A program made the position numbers and the translations under genes. The notes beneath the pieces are model-generated. The model made no database searches. It had not been told where the DNA came from and worked only from the letters and a program-made list of their open reading frames with translations. This document shows, in pieces, positions 1 to 48,833 of a DNA stretch of 48,941 nt; within the stretch, counting starts at the first letter, position 1, and the number at the start of each line of letters is the position of its first letter. Location: IMG/VR virus record IMGVR_UViG_2802429253_000004; one strand, given 5' to 3'. The stretch comes from a virus. Taxonomy: Duplodnaviria > Heunggongvirae > Uroviricota > Caudoviricetes.

Positions 1-121
1 AAACCGAGGTTTTTGCGAATTGCCTCTGTATCGTCTGAACGATATTTTTTCCCGCTTTTAGCAACAATCGCGGTTTAGAAAGTATGCAATATGGTTATGC
101 GAGAGTGTCAACTTTTGACCA
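1..121. repeat. 121-bp terminal direct repeat, identical to 48821..48941 (overlap of a circular molecule)
   Basis: The first 121 nt match the last 121 nt of the window exactly. Confidence 0.9.
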
Positions 122-638
122 GAATTTAGAATTACAACTGGAGGCGCTCAGGCGTTCAGGATGTGACCGGATTTTTGAAGATAAAATATCCGGTGCTAAA
201 TCAAAACGACCTGGACTTGATAAGCTACTGAAGGTGTTACGGCCGGGCGATACGGTTATTGTCTGGAAGCTGGACCGAATGGGGCGTTCTCTGATTCATC
301 TTGTTGATTTACTTAACCATTTTTTATCAAACGACATTGAGTTTATTTCGATTACGGAAGGGATAAAAATTAGCACTTCAATTGGCCGCTTTGCCTACAC
401 GATGCTGAGTGCAGTCGCAGAGATGGAGCGGGAAAATATGATTGAAAGAACGCGTGCAGGATTGGCGGTGGCAAGGGCTAACGGCAGGATAGGAGGACGC
501 CGCTCAAAACTGGCACCAGAGCAATGGGAACAGATCGGAAGGCTTATTGCGAATGGTGTTTCACGTAAGCGGATAGCGATTATCTTCGATGTTACCTTAT
601 CCACGCTTTACCGCAGGTTTCCGGCTGGGAATCATTGA
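84..638 (+). CDS. Serine recombinase, DNA invertase of the Gin/Cin/Hin/Pin family
   Basis: 184 aa; N-terminal YARVSTxDQ catalytic motif, resolvase fold and C-terminal HTH, closely resembling Mu Gin; lies next to an invertible tail-fiber segment. Confidence 0.9.
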   Translation: MQYGYARVSTFDQNLELQLEALRRSGCDRIFEDKISGAKSKRPGLDKLLKVLRPGDTVIVWKLDRMGRSLIHLVDLLNHFLSNDIEFISITEGIKISTSIGRFAYTMLSAVAEMERENMIERTRAGLAVARANGRIGGRRSKLAPEQWEQIGRLIANGVSRKRIAIIFDVTLSTLYRRFPAGNH

Positions 639-783: not shown

Positions 784-821
784 TACGATTGTGGGTGTCT
801 GGTTGGAAAACGACCAGATAT

Positions 822-915
822 GGAAACAAAAAGCCCGCAGATAAATCTGCGGGCTTCTTGCGACATCCACGGAAAAACCAACAAACATATCCATGGGCGC
901 CTCGACAACTCCCAT
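822..915 (-). ncRNA. Candidate CopA-like antisense RNA of the repA leader (3' end defined by an intrinsic terminator on the minus strand)
   Basis: Minus-strand hairpin (about 832..856, stem AAGCCCGCAG/CTGCGGGCTT) followed by a U-run (about 821..830), just upstream of the repA start as in IncFII control regions; the 5' end is not defined. Confidence 0.35.
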
Positions 916-951
916 TATACGTTGGTTTTCCGTGGACGCAAGAGCGAACAT

Positions 952-1800
952 ATGGATAGACCAATGCCGTCTCTACGTTCAGCTTACGTTTGTAATTTGT
1001 CGCCGGAGTTCCAGCCTCCAAAGCACCATACGCACAAGCTGCCGCTGGTGTTATCTGATGCTTTACAGCGCATTAATGGTCGTGATCTTACGTGTGAGGT
1101 TGCGTTCTACGTTAATCAACCGTCAGAGCGGAAACGCCGGATAAACGAGCATCGTCGTCGGGCAATTAATGCTGTGATTGCTGCGATTTTGCACCATGTA
1201 AACATCATTTCTAAGCGGGTTCTGGCCAGTGCTGAGGCGTTGGCTGATTTTTGCGGCCTGTCTACCGTATCCGAAGCTGGGAACAAGTCTATAACGCGCT
1301 GTACAAGGGCGTTGTCGCAACTGAAAGAGTTAGGTTTTATTGATTATGAACGTCGCTGGGATCGGGTGAATAAACAGTATTGGCCAGCGAAAATCGAGAT
1401 TCGTGATCAACTGCTGGAAACAGTTGGTATTACTGAACAAGCATGGAGACGTGCGGTTAGCCAGAAACTTAATTACTTCAATGCGAAGAATAGCGAACGG
1501 CTTAAAAAAGCGATAACGGAGGCTGATTATAAGCGTATTGTTATTCAGGAGCAGATGGAGAATGTATGGCGTCAGAGGAAGACGGCCAGAGAGATAAAGG
1601 CAAAACAGAAAGCAGCGGAGAGAGCTGCGCGTCTTGTTCAGGAAAAGGGAGAGGCCGAACTTCGTCACCAAATCACTAGAGAGGTTAGCCAGGAATTTGC
1701 TGATGGCATGTATCCTGGTGCTGACCTTGCATATTTACGCTCCCTCGTTGATCAGCGTTATAACAGGCTAAGAAAGACCTGGACATCACTCCAACATTAA
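952..1800 (+). CDS. repA: Plasmid replication initiator RepA, IncFII (RepFIIA) RepA1-like
   Basis: Recognisable similarity to R100/R1 RepA1 (region LSTVSEAGNKSITRCTRALSQLKELGFIDYE); the ORF is open from 820 but the Met at 952 gives the RepA1-like length (283 aa) and clears the antisense hairpin; start is uncertain. Confidence 0.8.
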   Translation: MDRPMPSLRSAYVCNLSPEFQPPKHHTHKLPLVLSDALQRINGRDLTCEVAFYVNQPSERKRRINEHRRRAINAVIAAILHHVNIISKRVLASAEALADFCGLSTVSEAGNKSITRCTRALSQLKELGFIDYERRWDRVNKQYWPAKIEIRDQLLETVGITEQAWRRAVSQKLNYFNAKNSERLKKAITEADYKRIVIQEQMENVWRQRKTAREIKAKQKAAERAARLVQEKGEAELRHQITREVSQEFADGMYPGADLAYLRSLVDQRYNRLRKTWTSLQH

Positions 1801-4072: not shown

Positions 4073-4453
4073 ATGAGCATGATTAAAATCCGCAAAAACG
4101 CTTTCCTTAAAATTCAAACTATCCTGGCTGGTTCTGTTGGCGTGATTTGCCGTTCTTCCTCAAGCCGCATCGATGACTGCTACGATGATGAGTATCGTGT
4201 GTCCTCATGCGATGAGGCTTTAACCTGGCTGAAGGAGAATCAGGAACGTGCCCAGGTATATCTGGAAACAGAGAACGGCAATCAGATGCTGCGTATTAGC
4301 GGTCGTTATGGATTTGAAACTACATTCATGGCCTATTTTAATCAGGCTTACTTTGACAAGGAGTTGGCCTGGTACACTGATCGCATGAGCAAAAGCGAGC
4401 CAGCCCCGATTACACCGCCGAACAATAAACCATTTTTATTCCTCGTTAAGTAA
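4073..4453 (+). CDS. Hypothetical protein driven by cassette copy A
   Basis: 126-aa ORF whose ATG directly follows the conserved leader. Confidence 0.5.
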   Translation: MSMIKIRKNAFLKIQTILAGSVGVICRSSSSRIDDCYDDEYRVSSCDEALTWLKENQERAQVYLETENGNQMLRISGRYGFETTFMAYFNQAYFDKELAWYTDRMSKSEPAPITPPNNKPFLFLVK

Positions 4454-6070: not shown

Positions 6071-6096
6071 AGCGCCCAAATCGGGCGCTTTGTTTT
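6071..6096. terminator. Bidirectional intrinsic terminator between convergent genes
   Basis: Stem AGCGCCC/GGGCGCT with a T-rich tail on the plus strand and a U-rich tail on the minus strand. Confidence 0.65.
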
Positions 6097-7237
6097 ATGG
6101 TTTTGCACCTGCGGCCAGTTTATCCGCAGATATTTTTATCAGTTCCTGTAGTGTCCTGGCTGGCAGGTTTGCATCCAGAACGCTGAGTATGCTGTTGTGA
6201 TCAGCCTGGTCGACTACTTTGCCTGTCGGTGGTAGTAGCTTGAGCTGAGGATTCAGGTTTTCGTCAAAGCTGATAAGTGCTCTGGCGTTTCTGAGCAGAT
6301 CAAGAAGTAAGGCTGATATCACATCATCTTTAGTCATTGTTGGTAGATTTAGTGCCGCTTTAGTTTTCTCCGTCGCCTTGTCAAACTCTTTGATTAGTGT
6401 CTTGCGGTAGTTTGGTTCTGTTAATAGCCGATGATGTTCTGTTGCCGTTCGGATAATCTTTGTTTCCTGATACAGTCGGTTGTATAGCATTCGCTCGTAT
6501 TCTGCCTTTAACACGCTGCTGATAGCGTTAAAGGCTTCAATGTAGGCCAGCTTGATATCCTTCACGCCTGGACCGTCGATACTTTCCATGAGCAAGGTAA
6601 ATCCGTCTTTTGTCATGCGATAGATTGTTATTTCGCGGTCGCTTCCTTCCAGCGGTCGTTGCTCTTTAAAGAAATGACGCGCCGCAGCCGTGCGAGGAAT
6701 GCGTAATGCATCGATGGCCATTACGATGGAATTGTTTGTGGTGCTGAATGCTTGGGCAACATCGGCTGAGGTTGTGAGTGGCTCGTTGTTGCACACCTTA
6801 ATGTAATACATCGGTTTGGCATTGAGTGTATCGACAACCTCACGAGCATTGTTTGGCGAGACGGTTACGGTCGCGGCCGTTTGCGCGTTCTGGTTGAAGT
6901 AGCAGTCTTCCAGCCGTTCGAATACATCCCACGCCTGATCGGTTTCGAGCATTTTAGCGTGACGTGCAGCCCCGCGTTCGGTCCAGAGGATGAGTTTTCT
7001 AACGTTATTCGCGATGGTTTGAAAATCTCTTAAAGAGATTTTCAAACTTTGGAGATCTGTACCTTTTACAACTATGAAATGTTTTCCTTCTGTAAACCGG
7101 GACTTATTACGGTGGTGATTTCTGTGAAGACATTCGACGCTACAGCCATATAGTTTGGCAAGCAGCTCCGTGGTGATAACGGGGAGCTGGTTATGCAGGA
7201 TAGGCTGTAGGGTGTTAACGGTCGGAAGCGTTTTCAT
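6095..7237 (-). CDS. Antirepressor-like regulator with ORF6N-type N-terminal domain and Rha domain
   Basis: 380 aa; N-terminal segment ending LWTERGAARHAKMLETDQAWDVFERL, central Rha-like segment ITIYRMTKDGFTLLMESIDGPGVKDIKLAYIEAFNAI. Confidence 0.7.
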   Translation of the reverse strand: MKTLPTVNTLQPILHNQLPVITTELLAKLYGCSVECLHRNHHRNKSRFTEGKHFIVVKGTDLQSLKISLRDFQTIANNVRKLILWTERGAARHAKMLETDQAWDVFERLEDCYFNQNAQTAATVTVSPNNAREVVDTLNAKPMYYIKVCNNEPLTTSADVAQAFSTTNNSIVMAIDALRIPRTAAARHFFKEQRPLEGSDREITIYRMTKDGFTLLMESIDGPGVKDIKLAYIEAFNAISSVLKAEYERMLYNRLYQETKIIRTATEHHRLLTEPNYRKTLIKEFDKATEKTKAALNLPTMTKDDVISALLLDLLRNARALISFDENLNPQLKLLPPTGKVVDQADHNSILSVLDANLPARTLQELIKISADKLAAGAKP

Positions 7238-17934: not shown

Positions 17935-18079
17935 GTATTGTTTTTTTATTGATCGATTGACCACATTTTGAAGGTTTTTTTATGGGAAAACCTTGTTTTA
18001 GGTGGTAACTGGGTGTAGTGTTTCATTTAACGTAGTAAAACTGCGTTAAGCGATTACCGCGTAATTTGTTGCTTTATGA

Positions 18080-18109
18080 AGCCCTGCCTTTTCGGCGGGG
18101 CTTTTTTTT
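18080..18109 (+). terminator. Strong intrinsic terminator immediately upstream of the lysis cassette
   Basis: 9-bp stem AGCCCTGCC/GGCGGGGCT with loop TTTTC, then an 8-nt T-run. Confidence 0.7.
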
Positions 18110-19890: not shown

Positions 19891-19966
19891 GGCCCCTTAG
19901 CTCAGTGGTTAGAGCAGGCGACTCATAATCGCACGGTCACTGGTTCAAGTCCGGTAGGGGCCACCA
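19891..19966 (+). tRNA. tRNA with CAU anticodon (tRNA-Met, or tRNA-Ile2 if lysidine-modified)
   Basis: 76-nt cloverleaf: acceptor GGCCCCT/AGGGGCC, D-arm GCTC-AGTGGTTA-GAGC, anticodon loop CTCATAA, T-arm ACTGG-TTCAAGT-CCGGT, encoded CCA. Confidence 0.85.
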
Positions 19967-20274: not shown

Positions 20275-20862
20275 ATGGAGGCAATTGTATTGTTTAATCT
20301 GATTTATGCAGATCCCCCCTGGGAATACAAAGACAAGTGTAAGGATGGGAATCGTGGCGCTGGTTTTAAGTATCCAACGATGAAAGCTGAGGAGATTGCT
20401 CGTATTCCTGTCTGGCAGCTTGCTAATCCTGAATCGTGTTTGTTGGCTATGTGGTGGGTTCCGACTCAGCCAGAAGAAGCGTTGCTGGTGGTGAAAGCAT
20501 GGGGATTCAGGCTTATGACCATGAAGGGCTTCACATGGAACAAATGTGGTAGCCGACAGCCAGACAAGCTGGTGATGGGGATGGGACATATGACTCGTGC
20601 AAACAGTGAAGATTGCTTGTTTGCGGTAAAAGGCAAATTACCGACACGTCTTGATGCGGGGATCATTCAGTCGTTTACATCGCCTCGTCTGGAGCATTCT
20701 CGGAAGCCTGATGTGGTCCGTGACAAACTGGTAAAGCTGTTAGGCGATGTTCCTCGTATTGAGCTGTTTGCTCGCGGTGATTTACCTGCTGGCTGGCATG
20801 GCTGGGGCAACCAGTGCAACGGAGGTATCCAGTTGCATGATGCTCTCTGGCAAGTGTCATAG
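20275..20862 (+). CDS. MT-A70-family N6-adenine DNA methyltransferase
   Basis: DPPW catalytic motif (IYADPPWEY) near the N-terminus; 195 aa; no adjacent restriction endonuclease. Confidence 0.8.
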   Translation: MEAIVLFNLIYADPPWEYKDKCKDGNRGAGFKYPTMKAEEIARIPVWQLANPESCLLAMWWVPTQPEEALLVVKAWGFRLMTMKGFTWNKCGSRQPDKLVMGMGHMTRANSEDCLFAVKGKLPTRLDAGIIQSFTSPRLEHSRKPDVVRDKLVKLLGDVPRIELFARGDLPAGWHGWGNQCNGGIQLHDALWQVS

Positions 20863-21216: not shown

Positions 21217-21246
21217 CGAGCCTCGGCAATTGCCGGGGCTTTTTTA
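21217..21246 (+). terminator. Rho-independent terminator
   Basis: GC-rich hairpin (GCCTCGGCAATTGCCGGGGC) followed by TTTTTT. Confidence 0.6.
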
Positions 21247-21728: not shown

Positions 21729-21935
21729 GTGGACTTGCCGAGTGATTTGTTCTGGTTTCCGCTTCCAATAAGAGATTTGTTGGTATTTCTGGCTGGCGCT
21801 TACGTCTGGAGAAAAGTGAAAGACACCTCGTTATCTTTGAGGTTTGTCTTAGCTATATCGGTAGGAACCGCGCTGGGTACGGCGTATCTCTTGATATTAC
21901 TGGAGGTATTCATTGAAAAATGGATAGTTTCATGA
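21729..21935 (+). CDS. Small membrane protein
   Basis: 68 aa with two hydrophobic helices. Confidence 0.4.
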   Translation: MDLPSDLFWFPLPIRDLLVFLAGAYVWRKVKDTSLSLRFVLAISVGTALGTAYLLILLEVFIEKWIVS

Positions 21936-22096
21936 ATGGTCTTGGCATTTTTCTGATGGTTGTGGCCGTGTGTTTTTGTATCTCGCTGGTGGTTATTGCT
22001 GGTGTCCTGTGGCGCATCTTAGTGGCGCAGAGAGCTTTTCGGTGTAAGCGGGAGCAATTGCGGTCAGGGTGCGTTTCATTCAAGTCAATGAGATAG
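21932..22096 (+). CDS. Small membrane protein (54 aa), translationally coupled to the upstream gene
   Basis: ATG overlaps the upstream stop (ATGA); hydrophobic N-terminus; shorter than the ORF-track cutoff. Confidence 0.3.
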   Translation: MNGLGIFLMVVAVCFCISLVVIAGVLWRILVAQRAFRCKREQLRSGCVSFKSMR

Positions 22097-22112
22097 ATGT
22101 AGGGTTATTTAT

Positions 22113-22826
22113 ATGATGCATTTAAAAAATATTAGTGCGCCGCTTATTGATCCCCGTGGCAAACATCCAGATGTGCTACCGCTTTTTACTGAAGACGGAA
22201 GAGATTGGTATGAGGAACAGAAGAAATTTCAGCCTCATACTTTAAAGATTGCGTATGACAATAACGGCATTATCCGCAGTGTATCGAAGGATGTATCGTT
22301 GCTTTGCCCGGATGGGATGAGTGTTATTGAGTTACCTGATACTGATGAGTATCGAAAAGTAGATAACACAGGTGATTGGCTCGTCAAAGATGTTCAAATT
22401 GTGAAGCGTGAAGGTACAGAGCACCGAGAAAACTCACTGATATCTATTGGTGCCGAGGCTGTTCCGTTTAAGTTTGAATTATCCCAACTGGTAACAATGC
22501 GTATCAGTGACGAATGGGGAGAAGTTCAAGCCCGTGCTCAGTATGCAAATGGCGAAAACCAGTATCTGATTCACTATCAGGCGGCTGATGGCCGTGCTAC
22601 TACAGAGTGGTTCTGTGAGTCGATGCTGATTGCGATGGAGGATAAACGTCATCCTGGCTGTCCTGTTTTTGCTTGTATTGATCTGCCAGAAGGCGCGGTA
22701 CTTGAAGACGACAAAGAAGAATGGTCGCCTGATGGCGAACTTGTCATTACCGGAATCGTGGATGGTAAGCCGAGATACTCTCGCATTGAGGTAAATAACG
22801 GCCACATCTGTTTGATACCAGAGTAA
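22113..22826 (+). CDS. Tail fiber assembly (Tfa)-like N-terminal domain fused to an uncharacterised C-terminal domain
   Basis: N-terminal ~110 aa align with the Tfa proteins at 46836..47369 and 47398..47925 (MMHLKNI..WYEEQ..FQP.TLK..YD.NG.I); C-terminal ~125 aa unrelated to them. Confidence 0.6.
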   Translation: MMHLKNISAPLIDPRGKHPDVLPLFTEDGRDWYEEQKKFQPHTLKIAYDNNGIIRSVSKDVSLLCPDGMSVIELPDTDEYRKVDNTGDWLVKDVQIVKREGTEHRENSLISIGAEAVPFKFELSQLVTMRISDEWGEVQARAQYANGENQYLIHYQAADGRATTEWFCESMLIAMEDKRHPGCPVFACIDLPEGAVLEDDKEEWSPDGELVITGIVDGKPRYSRIEVNNGHICLIPE

Positions 22827-23060: not shown

Positions 23061-23684
23061 ATGACAAAACATCTTAATGTGGTTTCTTTACCACTTTCTG
23101 TGTTGATTGGTTATGAAAAGAACGCTCGCACACACTCCGTGGAGCAGGTAGATCAGATTGTTGCCAGCATACAGGAGTACGGATGGACTAATCCGATCCT
23201 GATAGACGAAAACAACGTTGTAATTGCTGGTCATGGTCGAATTGCTGCGGCCACTCAGTTGGGGATGGATGATGTTCCCTGCATTGTTCTGGAAGGGCTA
23301 ACGGAGAATCAGAAGAAGGCATATCGTCTGGCCGACAACCGTATTCCGCTGAATGCTGGTTGGGATGAAGAGTTGTTAAGCGCGGAGCTTGCAGATCTTG
23401 CGGCCGATGATTTTGCTCTGGACTCAATTGGTTTTACTCAGCGCGAACTGGATAACTTATTGAGTGCGGCGGTCTACGATGACACAGAGGGTATGGATAT
23501 CCCATTTGAGAAGGATGAGGCCAAATCAGGCGTAAAAGTTCAGTACCTGTCATTTGGAGGTCATAAAATCCCGGCAACGGATGAGGAAGCGGATCGTTTT
23601 GACTGCGCGGTGTCTCGTTATGTTGATGATAATGGCAGCTATATCGGATTTGTATCCGCATTGCTGGCTGGGGAGGTGTGCTGA
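23061..23684 (+). CDS. ParB N-terminal (ParB/Srx nuclease-like) domain protein
   Basis: Conserved ParB-N segment VIAGHGRIAAATQLGMDDVPCIVL; paralog of 26351..26941. Confidence 0.7.
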   Translation: MTKHLNVVSLPLSVLIGYEKNARTHSVEQVDQIVASIQEYGWTNPILIDENNVVIAGHGRIAAATQLGMDDVPCIVLEGLTENQKKAYRLADNRIPLNAGWDEELLSAELADLAADDFALDSIGFTQRELDNLLSAAVYDDTEGMDIPFEKDEAKSGVKVQYLSFGGHKIPATDEEADRFDCAVSRYVDDNGSYIGFVSALLAGEVC

Positions 23685-25057
23685 TGCTTCACCTGAATTA
23701 CGACATAACGCACCTACGCGGCGCGGAATATAACCCGCGTTTTATCGGTGAGGATGATCTTGCGAGGCTGGCTGAAAGCGTCAGGGAGCTGGGGCTTGTG
23801 AAGCCATTGATAGTGCGCGGCGATTTGCTGGTGGCGGGACACCAAAGGACGAAGGCGCTACGTAAGTTGGGAATAACGCGTGCTGCGGTGTATGTGTTGC
23901 CCTGTGAAACGACGGTATACGACGAAGTTCGGTTTAACCAACTGCATAACGGAACGGATTTTGATAGCGGAGATGAGCGTTGCAGGGTGTCCGGTCTGGA
24001 AGATAAGCATGGTTTTGTTCAGGTATCGGCAAGCCAGATCTCAGGCAATATGCGCGCGAAAATGGCATATGTTCGAAAGAACATAGCGGAACTGGTTATC
24101 AAGTATGGTCCGTGGGGTGGTTGTGTTGCTACTCAGTCTGGCGAGGTTATTCACTGTGCTCAGTATGCATTAGCAGCGAAGATGACGCGCACACCGCTAA
24201 CGGTGTTTGTGATCCCTGATGTTGAGAAGGAAAAATACCAAAGTTATCTGAATAAAACTTATGGTGTATTTGAGTATTCTCATCTGGAGAAAACAACATA
24301 CATCCAGACGTATGCGCAGCTTATGCGGTTGCGTAATGGTGGCAGCCTGAAATCAAACCTGTATGAGTCGTTGATCCTCCCGATCATTGCCAAGACGCCA
24401 AGAGGAATTGATTTTGGTTCGGGGCAGGGAGACTACGCGCGAATGCTCAGGGCAAAGGGGTATAACCTGCATGATCTTGAGCTTTTCCGCCGTAAGGGCG
24501 CAGGAAACACTCTGGATAGGGCTGCAACAAACCGAATGATTGATACGCTGGTGGACGACTTAAAAACGCGAGGGCGTTACGACTACGTGATTTGCGATAG
24601 CGTTTTGAACTCGGTCGATAGTGTCGAGGCTGAATGGTCCGTTCTGACGGTTCTGAAAGGCCTGTGTAAAGCTGGTGGGTCAATATTCTTTTCTGGCCGT
24701 AGCCGTGGAGAGCTGGAGAGTGTGCTTAAACGAACGCAAGCTGCTAGCTCTATAAGTCGGCTTTATTTTATTGACCATAACGGTTTTTCTGCTTTGTACC
24801 GGAAGGGACACTGGTTTTATCAGAAGTTTCATTCTGATGAGGAAGTGAAGCAATTGTGCCGTGAGCATAGCTTCAGAATAAAGCGGTCGGTATTTAACGG
24901 TAAGAGCTGGTATTTGCACGTTATTAACGATGATTCTCTTCGCTGGGAGAGTCTGGAGAAAGCTGTTCGTTTTGAGTTTGAGTTGCCGTTGCCTGGTGGT
25001 TCAACAATCGGACGATCTGATGATGTGTTGGCGGCTTTCCGGCCGTTGATTAAGTAG
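23684..25057 (+). CDS. ParB-N domain fused to a class I SAM-dependent methyltransferase domain
   Basis: N-terminal ParB-like segment (LVAGHQRTKALRKLGI), C-terminal methyltransferase motif I IDFGSGQGDY and post-I acidic motif YVICDSVL; start placed at the ATG at 23684 (ORF open from 23678). Confidence 0.65.
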   Translation: MLHLNYDITHLRGAEYNPRFIGEDDLARLAESVRELGLVKPLIVRGDLLVAGHQRTKALRKLGITRAAVYVLPCETTVYDEVRFNQLHNGTDFDSGDERCRVSGLEDKHGFVQVSASQISGNMRAKMAYVRKNIAELVIKYGPWGGCVATQSGEVIHCAQYALAAKMTRTPLTVFVIPDVEKEKYQSYLNKTYGVFEYSHLEKTTYIQTYAQLMRLRNGGSLKSNLYESLILPIIAKTPRGIDFGSGQGDYARMLRAKGYNLHDLELFRRKGAGNTLDRAATNRMIDTLVDDLKTRGRYDYVICDSVLNSVDSVEAEWSVLTVLKGLCKAGGSIFFSGRSRGELESVLKRTQAASSISRLYFIDHNGFSALYRKGHWFYQKFHSDEEVKQLCREHSFRIKRSVFNGKSWYLHVINDDSLRWESLEKAVRFEFELPLPGGSTIGRSDDVLAAFRPLIK

Positions 25058-26350: not shown

Positions 26351-26941
26351 ATGGCTCTAAAAATCGAATATTTACCAGTCGGTAAGCTGCTCAGATACGC
26401 CAAAAATTCACGGACTCATTCAGATGAGCAAGTTGAACAGTTGGTGAACAGTATCCGTGAGTTCGGTTTCACTAATCCTGTGCTGATCGATGAAAAGAAT
26501 GAACTGATTGCGGGGCATGGGCGGCTTGCAGCAGCCGAAATTCTGGAAATGGATAAAGTTCCAGCGATTCGGTTGAGTAACCTTTCTGAAAAACAGAAGA
26601 AGGCTTACAGGATTGCAGATAACAAGCTGGCCTTAAATGCTGGCTGGGATATGCAGCTTCTGGCCGAAGAAGTCAAAGCGTTAATGGATGATGATTTTGA
26701 TATTGATCTGCTTGGGTTTAATGATGCAGAGCTTGACGAAATGTTAAGCGATGAACAGCCGCAGGAAGAAGACGATAATTCTTCCCCTGTTGTTCAAATT
26801 AAGTACCTGGCTATTGATAAAGAACGTATTCCCGCGACGGATATGGAAATTGCATTGTTGCTGGATGTTTATCGTCAGTACCACGACGCGCATGAAACTC
26901 ATGAGGGATTTGTTCAGTATCTTGCTAATGGTTGCAAGTAA
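26351..26941 (+). CDS. ParB N-terminal domain protein immediately upstream of the terminase genes
   Basis: Paralog of 23061..23684 (LIAGHGRLAAAEILEMDKVPAIRL); acidic C-terminal half. Confidence 0.7.
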   Translation: MALKIEYLPVGKLLRYAKNSRTHSDEQVEQLVNSIREFGFTNPVLIDEKNELIAGHGRLAAAEILEMDKVPAIRLSNLSEKQKKAYRIADNKLALNAGWDMQLLAEEVKALMDDDFDIDLLGFNDAELDEMLSDEQPQEEDDNSSPVVQIKYLAIDKERIPATDMEIALLLDVYRQYHDAHETHEGFVQYLANGCK

Positions 26942-44763: not shown

Positions 44764-46833
44764 GTGAGTAAATTATTATTTACGATGACTGACGCCGGGC
44801 GTCAGGAGCTGGTTAATGCCAACAAAACAGGAACAAATAAAGTTGAGATTGTTTCTGTTGGTTTAGGTAGTAGATATTATGTCACGTCAACTTCACAAAC
44901 AAATATAACAAACGAAATAAAACGACTTACCACAATAGGTGGCAAAGTTGTTTCCCCTGATACAATTCATGTAACAGCGAAGGATGATAGTAAAGATGAG
45001 TATGTTGTCCATACAATAGGATTGTATACGAATAAGGGTACGTTGTTTGCTGTATACTCACAAGAACAAGCAATAATAAATAAAGCATCATCTACTATCG
45101 CTTTAATATCAAGTGATATAGCAATTAAAACTCTTGATACTAAAAATATTACATTTGGTGATATTGAGTTTATTAATCCTCCCGCGACCGAAACTGTTGT
45201 TGGGGTGGCAAGATTTGCTAATGAACAAGAAATTGATGCAGGTACAGATGATTCCCTTGCTGTTTCAGCAAAGCGGCTTAAGCAAGCCATTGTGAAACAT
45301 GAGCAATCACGTAATCATCCTGATGCAACTTTAACCTCAAAAGGCTTTGTTCAACTTAGCAGCGCCACCAATAGCACGTCTGAAACGCTTGCTGCGACGC
45401 CTAAGGCTGTTAAGGCAGCATATGACCTGGCTAACGCCAAATACACCGCACAGGACGCTACCACAGCGCGAAAAGGGATTGTTCAGCTCAGTAGTGCCAC
45501 CAACAGCACGTCTGAAACGCTGGCAGCAACACCAAAGGCTGTTAAGGCAGCGTATGATCTTGCGGCCGGAAAGGCTCCGTCCAATCACACGCATTCGTGG
45601 GAGCAGATAACAAATGTGCCTGTAGCTTCACTGACTGTAAGGGGAATAACTCAGCTCAGTAGTGCCACCAACAGCACGTCTGAAACACTGGCCGCGACAT
45701 CGAAAGCTGTAAAGGTGGTAATGGATGAAACGAACAAGAAAGCGCCCCTGAACAGTCCGGCGCTGACCGGAACACCAACAACACCAACTGCGCCAAAAGG
45801 TACTAACAATACTCAGATCGCAAGCACGGCTTATGTTATGGCTGCGATCGCTGCCCTCGTGGACTCATCGCCTGACGCACTGAATACGCTGAACGAGCTG
45901 GCTGCGGCGTTGGGCAACGACCCGAATTTTGCGACCACCATGACTAACGCGCTTGCGGGTAAGCAACCGAAAGATGCCACCCTGACGGCGCTGGCCGGGC
46001 TTGCTACTGCGGCAGACAGGTTTCCGTATTTTACGGGGAATGATGTCGCCAGCCTGGCAACTCTGACAAAAGTCGGGCGGGATATTCTTGCGAAATCGAC
46101 CGTTGCCGCCGTTATCGAATACCTCGGTTTACGAGAACTCGGCACAAGCGGGGAAAAAATACCGTTACTCAGTACGGCGAATACCTGGACCAATCGACAA
46201 ACATTCAGTGGTGGCCTTTCTGGGGAACTGTCCGGCAATGCCGCTACTGCAACAAAGCTGAAAACAGCACGAAAAATTGCTGGAGTTGGTTTTGATGGTT
46301 CTAGCGATATTTCAATTAGTGCCAAAAATGTCAATGCATTTGCACTCCGACAAACAGGTAATACTGTTAATGGTGATACATCCGTTGGATGGAATTGGGA
46401 TAGTGGTGCATATAACGCCCTAATTGGTGGTGCATCTGCATTAATTCTTCACTTTAATATAAATGCTGGTAGCTGTCCTGCCGTACAATTCCGTGTGAAT
46501 TATAAAAATGGTGGCATTTCCTACAGGTCGGCTCGTGATGGTTATGGGTTTGAATTAGGTTGGTCAGATTTCTATACCACGACACGAAAACCTTCAGCGG
46601 GAGATGTTGGTGCATATACTCAGGCAGAATGTAACTCAAGGTTTATTACAGGTATTCGCCTTGGCGGTCTGTCATCTGTTCAGACATGGAATGGTCCCGG
46701 CTGGTCTGACAGGTCAGGTTACGTTGTTACGGGTTCAGTTAACGGAAACCGTGATGAATTAATTGATACAACACAGGCAAGGCCAATTCAGTATTGCATT
46801 AATGGGACGTGGTATAACGCGGGGAGTATTTAA
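44764..46833 (+). CDS. Tail fiber protein (constant N-terminal part plus variable C-terminal part, current orientation)
   Basis: 689 aa; internal fiber repeats; a gix-like crossover site lies in-frame at 46112..46137; C-terminus ends ..YCINGTWYNAGSI. Confidence 0.85.
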   Translation: MSKLLFTMTDAGRQELVNANKTGTNKVEIVSVGLGSRYYVTSTSQTNITNEIKRLTTIGGKVVSPDTIHVTAKDDSKDEYVVHTIGLYTNKGTLFAVYSQEQAIINKASSTIALISSDIAIKTLDTKNITFGDIEFINPPATETVVGVARFANEQEIDAGTDDSLAVSAKRLKQAIVKHEQSRNHPDATLTSKGFVQLSSATNSTSETLAATPKAVKAAYDLANAKYTAQDATTARKGIVQLSSATNSTSETLAATPKAVKAAYDLAAGKAPSNHTHSWEQITNVPVASLTVRGITQLSSATNSTSETLAATSKAVKVVMDETNKKAPLNSPALTGTPTTPTAPKGTNNTQIASTAYVMAAIAALVDSSPDALNTLNELAAALGNDPNFATTMTNALAGKQPKDATLTALAGLATAADRFPYFTGNDVASLATLTKVGRDILAKSTVAAVIEYLGLRELGTSGEKIPLLSTANTWTNRQTFSGGLSGELSGNAATATKLKTARKIAGVGFDGSSDISISAKNVNAFALRQTGNTVNGDTSVGWNWDSGAYNALIGGASALILHFNINAGSCPAVQFRVNYKNGGISYRSARDGYGFELGWSDFYTTTRKPSAGDVGAYTQAECNSRFITGIRLGGLSSVQTWNGPGWSDRSGYVVTGSVNGNRDELIDTTQARPIQYCINGTWYNAGSI
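46112..46137. promoter_or_regulatory. gix/cix-like recombination site inside the tail fiber gene (TTATCGAATACCTCGGTTTACGAGAA)
   Basis: Matches the Mu gix consensus TTATCCAAAACCTCGGTTTACAGGAA at most positions; inverted partner at 48807..48833. Confidence 0.75.
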
Positions 46834-46835
46834 CG

Positions 46836-47369
46836 ATGATGCACTTAAAAAACATTACTGCTGGCAACCCTAAAACAAAAGAGCAATACCAGCTAACGAA
46901 ACAATTTAACATCAAATGGCTTTATACAGAGGATGGAAAAAACTGGTATGAGGAACAAAATAACTTTCAGCCTGATACGTTGAAAATGGTCTATGACCAC
47001 AACGGCGTTATTATTTGTATTGAAAAGGATGTTTCAGCAATTAATCCAGAAGGCGCAAGCGTCGTTGAATTACCTGATATTACAGCAAATCGCCGGGCTG
47101 ATATTTCGGGTAAATGGATGTTCAAAGATGGCGTAGTGATAAAGCGAACTTACACCGAGGAAGAGCAGAGGCAACAAGCGGAAAATGAAAAGCAAAGCCT
47201 GTTGCAACTTGTCAGGGATAAAACCCAGCTATGGGACTCACAGCTACGGCTGGGCATCATTTCCGACGAGAATAAACAAAAATTAACCGAGTGGATGCTC
47301 TACGCGCAGAAAGTCGAATCCACAGACACCTCCAGCCTGCCAGTAACGTTTCCCGAACAACCAGAATGA
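46836..47369 (+). CDS. Tail fiber assembly protein (Tfa/U)
   Basis: 177 aa; Tfa-type N-terminal domain directly after the fiber gene. Confidence 0.8.
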   Translation: MMHLKNITAGNPKTKEQYQLTKQFNIKWLYTEDGKNWYEEQNNFQPDTLKMVYDHNGVIICIEKDVSAINPEGASVVELPDITANRRADISGKWMFKDGVVIKRTYTEEEQRQQAENEKQSLLQLVRDKTQLWDSQLRLGIISDENKQKLTEWMLYAQKVESTDTSSLPVTFPEQPE

Positions 47370-47397: not shown

Positions 47398-47925
47398 TTA
47401 CTCTGGTTTTTGTGGCCATTCTGGCTTTGCCGTATCCACGCGGCTGACCAGAACGCTGTAGCGTTCCCATGACTCCAGTCGTGTACGCTCCTCATCTGTT
47501 GCCATATTCAATCTGACAGCGCGTTCCAGTGGCTGGATAACTGATTCAGCTTCGGAAAGTAACGCGGACTTTTGTGATTCAGCCTGTTGTTGCTGTTCGT
47601 CTTCCGTATAAATCCGTTTAACCACAGCTCCATCCTTAAACATCCACTTCCTTGAATCATCGGCACGACGATTAGCTGTTATATCGGGAACCTCAACGAC
47701 GCTAAAACCTTCAGGATTAAGCGTGGAGGCATCTTTAGTGATGGCGACAATAATATTATTTTCGTCGTAAACAATCTTTATTGTGTCTTCCTGAAAATTA
47801 CTTACTTCCTCATACCAGTTTTTATCATCTTCGGACCATAACCATATAACATCAAAATTCTTTGTTAGCTGATATTGTTCTTTTGTTTTTGGATTTCCTG
47901 ATCTGATATTTTTTAAATGCTGCAT
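47398..47925 (-). CDS. Alternative tail fiber assembly protein (Tfa/U')
   Basis: 175 aa; paralog of 46836..47369 on the opposite strand inside the invertible segment. Confidence 0.8.
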
Positions 47926-47928
47926 AAT

Positions 47929-48816
47929 TTATACCTGTGCAACGTTATACCATGTACCATTGATGTATTTCTGAATTGGTCTGAAAATAGCTTCATCATC
48001 GCCATCAACTTCACCAATAATTCTTAATCCGGTAAGTGCGTGTCCGGCAATCTCATAACGCCCGCCGCGTGACATTAATTGAACAACTCGCGTACCAAGC
48101 CGGACATCTCCCACATAGCGAGAGTCAAAATTGCTGTAATTGGATGGGATAACCTGTCCGTGCACATTCAGACCGTGCCCCATAGTAACAAGACCAGTAT
48201 TAAGCGCGATATAGAATGGACGAAGACCATTCCAGCTACCGTACTGGTCACCACTGGCAGTAAATAACAGATACAAGCTGCCACCATCCTGTCGCAGAAT
48301 TGCACCATAATTTCCTGCAATCATCCTTAAAGCATTCTGTGATGTGGTTATCAGTTCCCCAGTCATGGTATCGCCAGCACGATTCCAGTCGCGACGCCAG
48401 CCAGGCGCGTAGGTGTCACCATGATTAATATAAGTAAATTGCGCTTTTGCTGTACCGTTCGTTGCAGTTGTTGGAGTAGTGACGCGAATAGTCATTGCGC
48501 TCTTGGTGCCCATCACTTCAACCACCGAGCCAGCAAGTTGAATATTCCCGCAACCTGTATCTGTAATAATTTTATTATTGGCATAAGACCATGAACCTTT
48601 GCACATCCAGTATGGGTGATTAAATGCCCCCTGAGACTCCAGCCACGCAATAAACTGTGCTGTCGTCCAGTTGCTGCTATCTCCTCCAATATTGATACTT
48701 CCGCTGGCCGCTTTCGCTGCACCAATATTTTTTGTGAAGGTATCTTTTCCTGGAATATCCGCACCGTTCTGGTTTTTCTGCAATGCGCCAGAAGCCTTGT
48801 TTATCGTTTCCTGCAA
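47929..48816 (-). CDS. Alternative tail-fiber variable C-terminal segment (Sv'), expressed only after inversion
   Basis: Open frame begins exactly at the gix core; an LGL-QETINK junction continues the fiber frame after inversion; C-terminus ..YINGTWYNVAQV parallels the plus-strand fiber. Confidence 0.8.
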   Translation of the reverse strand: MQETINKASGALQKNQNGADIPGKDTFTKNIGAAKAASGSINIGGDSSNWTTAQFIAWLESQGAFNHPYWMCKGSWSYANNKIITDTGCGNIQLAGSVVEVMGTKSAMTIRVTTPTTATNGTAKAQFTYINHGDTYAPGWRRDWNRAGDTMTGELITTSQNALRMIAGNYGAILRQDGGSLYLLFTASGDQYGSWNGLRPFYIALNTGLVTMGHGLNVHGQVIPSNYSNFDSRYVGDVRLGTRVVQLMSRGGRYEIAGHALTGLRIIGEVDGDDEAIFRPIQKYINGTWYNVAQV

Positions 48817-48833
48817 ACCGAGGTTTTTGCGAA
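48807..48833. promoter_or_regulatory. gix/cix-like recombination site (inverted partner of 46112..46137)
   Basis: Reverse complement TTCGCAAAAACCTCGGTTTGCAGGAAA shares the ACCTCGGTTT core and dyad arms with the site in the fiber gene. Confidence 0.75.

Follow-up and report, generated by a model that had tools for sequence, protein, structure and literature searches.

A tail fiber assembly-type N-terminal domain joined in frame to an L33-type protein in the late region of an IncFII phage-plasmid

Introduction

The tail fiber assembly (Tfa) proteins of phages such as Mu (TfaU) and lambda (Tfa), which belong to the Pfam family Caudo_TAP (PF02413), are encoded immediately downstream of their cognate fiber genes. 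In the 48,941-nucleotide virus record analyzed here in full (IMG/VR IMGVR_UViG_2802429253_000004; referred to as the window), an open reading frame (ORF) at 22113..22826 (+) departs from this arrangement. Its product begins like a Tfa protein but is joined to an unrelated protein, and it lies away from the tail fiber gene. What is this protein, and how did it come to occupy this position? The original prediction, made from the sequence, left three possibilities: a domain-shuffled chaperone, a remnant of an older fiber locus, or a repurposed protein. Here, we examine the anatomy, origin, and coding constraint of the fused ORF and weigh these explanations against one another.

Results

The fused ORF lies in the late region of a phage-plasmid

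The window is a phage-plasmid with an IncFII-type RepA gene (820..1800) and a late region related to that of the Stx2e phage phiP27. It also encodes a serine invertase (84..638) and a gpA-type terminase. Because the invertase gene lies at the start of the window and the invertible fiber segment at its end, the window is a circularly permuted plasmid. We found the region surrounding the fused ORF in 71 complete Escherichia coli genomes, with 70 of 73 matching places on circular plasmids; the plasmids among the matches listed were mostly 47 to 50 kb in size. The plaque-forming Yersinia phages vB_YpM_41 and vB_YpM_44 also match the window. The paper on vB_YpM_HQ103 covers an unrelated 32-kb phage. 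No integrase was found among the few ORFs scanned, which fits plasmid maintenance.

The fused ORF sits after the lysis cassette and ahead of the terminase and packaging genes. Two small hydrophobic ORFs precede it (21729..21935 and 21920..22096 [+]); the second encodes a single transmembrane segment, and its last codons are altered by the import described below. It is followed by two genes with Pfam ParB_N domains (23061..23684 and 23678..25057 [+]). These positions agree with the predicted setting between small membrane proteins and ParB-like genes, as does the distance of approximately 22 kb to the tail fiber gene, which starts at position 44764. The prediction that no gix site lies nearby also held: the invertase crossover sites are at positions 46118 to 46137 and 48808 to 48827, with no further copy elsewhere in the window, and no window sequence matched the Mu gix consensus within 3 mismatches. 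The crossover sites themselves form a 20-nt inverted repeat, TTCCTGCAAACCGAGGTTTT, which has more than 3 mismatches to the Mu gix consensus. Because the invertible segment is a mosaic that is common to many P1-like plasmids, asking whether the fused allele goes together with one fiber type was uninformative.

The ORF is a two-module chimera

The ORF is intact, starts with ATG, and encodes 237 amino acids that form a clean two-module chimera: a Tfa N-terminal domain, a linker, and a whole L33/phrog_1935 protein. Residues 1 to 100 (22113..22412 [+]) correspond to the Tfa N-terminal domain, identified by BLASTP, by the structure 5YVQ_B, and by Foldseek, in a short variant with a 7-amino-acid deletion relative to canonical Tfa proteins. 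DNA alignment delimits the linker, GTEHRENSLISIGAEAV, to residues 101 to 117 (22413..22463 [+]). Residues 118 to 176 (22464..22640 [+]) contain a conserved core of ~55 residues (FKFxLxQxV..SxExGxV.ARAQY..ENQYLIHY.AADGRA..WF.ES.L) that is predicted to form an SH3/Tudor-like beta-barrel. The remainder, residues 177 to 237 (22641..22823 [+]), consists of an EDxxHPGCP motif and a variable beta-hairpin tail that is modeled with low confidence (pLDDT of 51 to 58) and is missing or swapped in some alleles. The same ORF, also of 237 amino acids, is present in vB_YpM_41 and vB_YpM_44, six E. coli plasmids, and one Klebsiella aerogenes plasmid. No NCBIfam match was obtained for the fusion or its neighbor genes, and the fusion matched no PADLOC defense-system model at an E value of ≤0.01. 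A full-length AF2 model of the fusion (pLDDT of 53) was too poor for judging the arrangement of the two domains.

We compared the N-terminal half with the two canonical Tfa proteins encoded in the invertible segment, one of 177 amino acids (46836..47369 [+]) and one of 175 amino acids (47398..47925 [−]), which are 56% identical to each other. In BLASTP alignments, residues 1 to 106 of the fusion share 48% identity with the former (E value of 1e-33) and 35% with the latter (E value of 2e-28), similarities that are significant and that bear out the predicted homology. Mu TfaU (PDB 5YVQ_B), the only solved relative, matches the same residues (E value of 3.7e-24), and the predicted N-terminal domain superposes on it (Foldseek E value of 2.8e-7; TMt of 0.69). 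Residues 1 to ~100 are homologous to the N-terminal domain of the Mu TfaU/lambda Tfa family, the part that binds the fiber tip, at 46 to 48% identity and with a matching predicted fold.

The homology to Tfa ends at a domain boundary. The Caudo_TAP profile aligns to the fusion over positions 2 to 57 of 131 only (26 bits against a cutoff of 22.1 bits), compared to positions 2 to 131 for both resident Tfa proteins (E value of 5.5e-37 for the 177-amino-acid protein, which matches 5YVQ_B at 2e-64). Absent from the fusion is the conserved helical domain that forms the C-terminal part of Tfa (profile positions ~58 to 131), with the alignment diverging past the sequence IVKRE. As summarized in PMC9608196 from North et al. 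(2019), the variable N-terminal domain of Tfa binds the distal fiber, the conserved helical domain is responsible for trimerization and assembly, and Mu Tfa remains on the mature fiber. Since the helical domain is absent, the fusion should not function as known Tfa chaperones do. The first of the predicted possibilities therefore stands in part: the protein is domain shuffled, but its designation as a chaperone is not supported. The fused N-terminal domain departs most from canonical Tfa at residues 10 to 26 and at residues 76 to 84, the latter being rewritten. These stretches may include fiber-contacting helices, in which case the binding partner may have changed or fiber binding may have been lost. 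When the N-terminal domain alone was used as the query, a word-indexed protein search returned only four matches.

As predicted, the final ~130 amino acids have no Tfa similarity. Instead, residues ~103 to 222 match phrog_1935 from end to end (positions 2 to 116 of 116; E value of 6e-62), a family without annotation in Pfam, NCBIfam, or PADLOC; Pfam contained no family for this domain even when 65 homologues were scanned. The L33 protein of phiP27 is a member of phrog_1935 and is encoded between the lysis genes and cos/terminase, the same slot as that of the fusion. Lambdoid prophages of E. coli encode chromosomal homologues of 130 amino acids, whose genes are flanked by those for the endolysin and Nu1/terminase. 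In contrast to phiP27 L33, the fused L33-type part has no terminator, ribosome-binding site, or start codon of its own and forms the C-terminal portion of a longer reading frame. A full HMMER scan identified 300 representative relatives, which have the ~55-residue core in common; it often stands alone in proteins of 57 to 65 amino acids and sometimes carries other N- or C-terminal extensions.

Modeled by AF2 with a 76-sequence alignment, the core forms a five-stranded barrel (pLDDT of 82 to 96). In this model, the fold is an SH3/Tudor-like barrel that resembles HspQ/YccV (PDB 5YCQ), an E. coli heat shock protein and Lon specificity-enhancing factor, as well as the YdhK/DUF1541 barrels. Sequence links to these proteins are weak: the C-terminal domain profile matched YdhK with an E value of 0.0036, and HspQ was matched by hhalign with a probability of 43% and in a pairwise comparison with an E value of 2.6e-4. 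Identity is 17 to 20%, and none of 65 family members matched the Pfam YccV-like model at an E value of ≤1. A BFVD fold search returned only unnamed small phage barrels.

The fused allele was imported by recombination

Most sibling plasmids lack the fusion. In unfused siblings, the small transmembrane gene is followed by an intrinsic terminator (AGCCTCGCGGTGTCGCGGGGCTTTTTATTTT), a ribosome-binding site, and a stand-alone gene that starts with MEKKEDKPIAIGAES and encodes 136 amino acids, or 105 in a deletion variant. This arrangement, without the insert, is present in 65 of the 71 E. coli genomes with the region; the fused state is found in the window and 6 of the 71. It is a rare allele, accounting for ~8 to 11% of sibling plasmids. 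DNA alignment and sliding-window identity reveal an imported segment of ~385 bp (22064..22445 [+]) that replaces ~90 bp of the unfused siblings, namely, the 3' end of the upstream small gene, the intrinsic terminator, the ribosome-binding site, the ATG, and the first codons. On either side of this segment, the window is collinear with the unfused siblings at 97 to 100% identity.

In the alignment, the linker (REGT-EHRENSLISIGAE) lies opposite the former ribosome-binding site, the ATG, and the first codons, and the part that corresponds to the 5' untranslated region appears to be homologous as well. The ATG of the stand-alone gene reads ACA in the window linker, while a related fusion from Escherichia albertii (described below) retains the Met. 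Because the linker covers the old start region, virtually all of the L33-type protein follows Tfa residue ~100, and the junction at this residue coincides exactly with the Tfa interdomain boundary.

The window allele is itself a double mosaic. Its flanks and its Tfa half are 97 to 100% and 90 to 98% identical, respectively, to those of another fused version (P0002, contig L005). Its L33 half, in contrast, is 97 to 100% identical to an unfused allele (L002) but just 56 to 87% identical to L005. This pattern indicates that a ready-made fused cassette entered the slot and that later recombination, with a crossover near positions 22440 to 22462, produced the window allele. The fusion was not formed in place. 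We also searched for a donor. A blastn search of 5,426 complete E. coli genomes with the insert recovered only the six fused plasmids; otherwise, ordinary tfa genes aligned at 74 to 82% identity, with less than 40% of the query covered. In a scan of viral contigs, a single contig was near-identical, canonical Tfa proteins reached at most 53% identity, and no donor emerged.

The fused allele removes the terminator between the upstream late genes and the L33-type gene, and with no terminator separating them, cotranscription of the fusion with these genes is probable. In the unfused alleles (L002 at ~4085 to 4135, and L003, corresponding to positions ~22064 to 22445 of the window), the terminator lies only ~10 nt before the L33-type ribosome-binding site, so expression of the unfused gene must depend on read-through. 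The L33 locus is also a hot spot of variation (L003, 4135 to 4452). Its variants include an 82-nt deletion allele encoding 105 amino acids and, among P0007, P0025, and P0030, frameshifted read-through products of 147 to 157 amino acids and a fusion of 182 amino acids with a leucine-rich-repeat-like C terminus.

Three diverged fusions are constrained in both halves

Fused proteins exist in three diverged versions: the window type, P0002 (75% identity), and P0006 (52% identity). The last of these is carried in a nonphage, AT-rich context on a 143-kb E. albertii plasmid (CP117576) and has a GC content of 30%, compared to 45% for the window copy. On that plasmid (locus L004, 2254 to 4729), the fused copy lies in a region of 33% GC straight after a gene for a radical-SAM/SPASM protein. 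A Rep3 replicon, a possible AraC-like regulator, and IS66 elements are nearby, and there are no phage genes close by.

All three versions have in common the junction, the 7-amino-acid deletion, which is found in none of 22 canonical Tfa N-terminal domains examined, ~20 nt upstream of the ATG, and several substitutions (e.g., LPLFTEDGR and ELPD.D.YR). In a neighbor-joining tree, they group together and apart from the 22 canonical domains, although the identities themselves are close (58% between fusions versus as much as 57% between a fusion and its best canonical Tfa match). The argument for selection that follows requires a single origin of the three fusions, and the shared characters support such an origin.

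Both halves of the fusion show coding constraint. For the Tfa half, dN/dS relative to close relatives is 0.13 to 0.37, a range that rests on only 4 to 11 changes. Relative to the E. albertii copy, pS and pN are 0.76 and 0.25, respectively. Across the three codon positions, the differences amount to 0.36, 0.17, and 0.51. None of the three diverged versions contains a stop codon or frameshift; in neutral simulations, a 100-codon frame remained open in only ~3% of cases. The shared junction, the shared deletion, and the constraint therefore argue that the fusion probably functions as a protein of two domains and is not a scar. Of the possibilities raised at the outset, a repurposed protein is the one that appears to fit this evidence for selection best.

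Discussion

Automatic annotation treats the locus differently. PGAP splits the ORF into an incomplete tail fiber assembly protein, missing its C terminus and labeled as a pseudogene, and a 141-amino-acid hypothetical protein that starts at an internal GTG (codon 97); one protein cluster (P0003) contains 98 annotations of this kind. On such a reading, the Tfa piece would be a dead in-frame scar of recombination, and the sole working product would be the L33-type protein, translated from an internal site, for instance the GTG. Truncated Tfa fragments are indeed frequent in phage genomes (e.g., phrog_24494 and phrog_21546, of 93 to 96 amino acids), the fused allele is in the minority, and, were the fusion only a scar, it would be an ordinary case of phage mosaicism. 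Even so, we regard this explanation as doubtful. The three diverged versions have kept their frames open, codon position and dN/dS patterns point to constraint on the Tfa half, and the join falls precisely on a domain boundary. Furthermore, no Shine-Dalgarno-like sequence is evident ahead of the internal GTG, and the window type has lost the start codon of the stand-alone gene. A translated, constrained two-domain protein is therefore probably the better description, and the division into a pseudogene and a hypothetical protein may be wrong.

That the fusion could serve as a third true chaperone with an exotic C-terminal domain, for a fiber of its own or another phage, is suggested by its clear N-terminal homology to a domain that, in the summary given in PMC9608196, contacts the fiber tip in Mu. 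This is very unlikely: the helical trimerization domain is missing, no fiber gene adjoins the ORF, cognate Tfa proteins are already present for both fiber variants, and the fusion is missing from phiP27 and most sibling phage-plasmids. The notion of a tail fiber locus once situated at 22 kb is scarcely credible. The ~50 bp upstream of the ATG faintly resemble the 3' ends of the resident fiber genes, but the insert is a sharply bounded replacement of 385 bp in flanks collinear with siblings in which an unfused L33-like gene occupies precisely this position. L33-type genes fill this slot across phiP27 and lambdoid prophages, and neither crossover sites nor any other fiber gene fragments lie nearby.

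The ORF is an intact two-domain chimera that stems from a preexisting fused allele imported by recombination, and we consider it likely, with some reservation, that it encodes an L33-type accessory protein supplemented by a binding module. The first module (residues 1 to 100) is the domain that contacts the fiber tip in Mu TfaU, and the second (residues ~102 to 237) is a complete L33/phrog_1935 accessory protein. Joining them at the interdomain boundary replaced the helical domain for oligomerization and assembly, and entry of the fused allele into the L33 slot cost the L33-type gene its terminator, ribosome-binding site, and start codon. The window copy is a secondary recombinant with an imported Tfa half on a resident L33 allele. 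If the whole polypeptide is made, it would be unable to act as a fiber-folding chaperone and would most likely have an L33-type accessory role with an extra binding module. The N-terminal domain, presumably still able to bind something, could tether the barrel to a fiber-tip-like partner or could cap or occupy such a tip.

A more specific version of this proposal is a late protein that binds fiber tips but lacks the assembly engine. Such a protein might occupy the tail fiber tips of its own phage or of coresident Mu-, P1-, or P2-type phages, either decorating fibers with an HspQ-like barrel or acting as a dominant-negative decoy in phage competition. We think this unlikely, although a role in defense or competition would fit the survival of the fusion on the nonphage E. 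albertii plasmid. A conceptual parallel is Tab, a prophage protein that blocks virion/tail assembly of other phages (PMC10884400), in that a structural-module look-alike from a resident element could hinder assembly. The parallel does not extend further: the fusion has no sequence relation to Tab and no PADLOC match, and its gene lies in the late operon, unlike a moron expressed in lysogeny.

The chimera combines two known kinds of parts, one well known and one uncharacterized, and its interest is modest unless it has a fiber-directed activity. If it is functional, the fiber-binding half of Tfa chaperones would be reusable as a portable module outside fiber loci, and the fusion would offer an initial way into the L33-type barrel proteins, which are widespread yet unannotated and lie at the end of lambdoid late operons.

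Other features of the window

Several further features were observed in the window. A 380-amino-acid protein encoded at 6095 to 7237 (−) has ORF6N and Rha (Phage_pRha) domains and is an antirepressor-type regulator. The gene at 19891 to 19966 (+) is called as tRNA-Met (anticodon CAT) by ARAGORN and in the Yersinia phage record, while the RefSeq annotation of sibling plasmids gives tRNA-Ile, which implies that the CAT anticodon is modified with lysidine. Just before the terminase is a dense set of genes of DNA modification type (20275 to 20862, 23061 to 23684, 23678 to 25057, and 26351 to 26941 [+]). The set encodes an MT-A70 methyltransferase along with three ParB_N-domain proteins. A SAM methyltransferase domain is fused to one of these three, and all three have matches to the N-terminal region of a single PADLOC "Type II MTase" model. 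Finally, strong hairpins resembling intrinsic terminators lie within the late gene array at 18078 to 18104 and 21218 to 21241 (+), and their position inside the array suggests that the late operon depends on antitermination, as in lambdoid phages.
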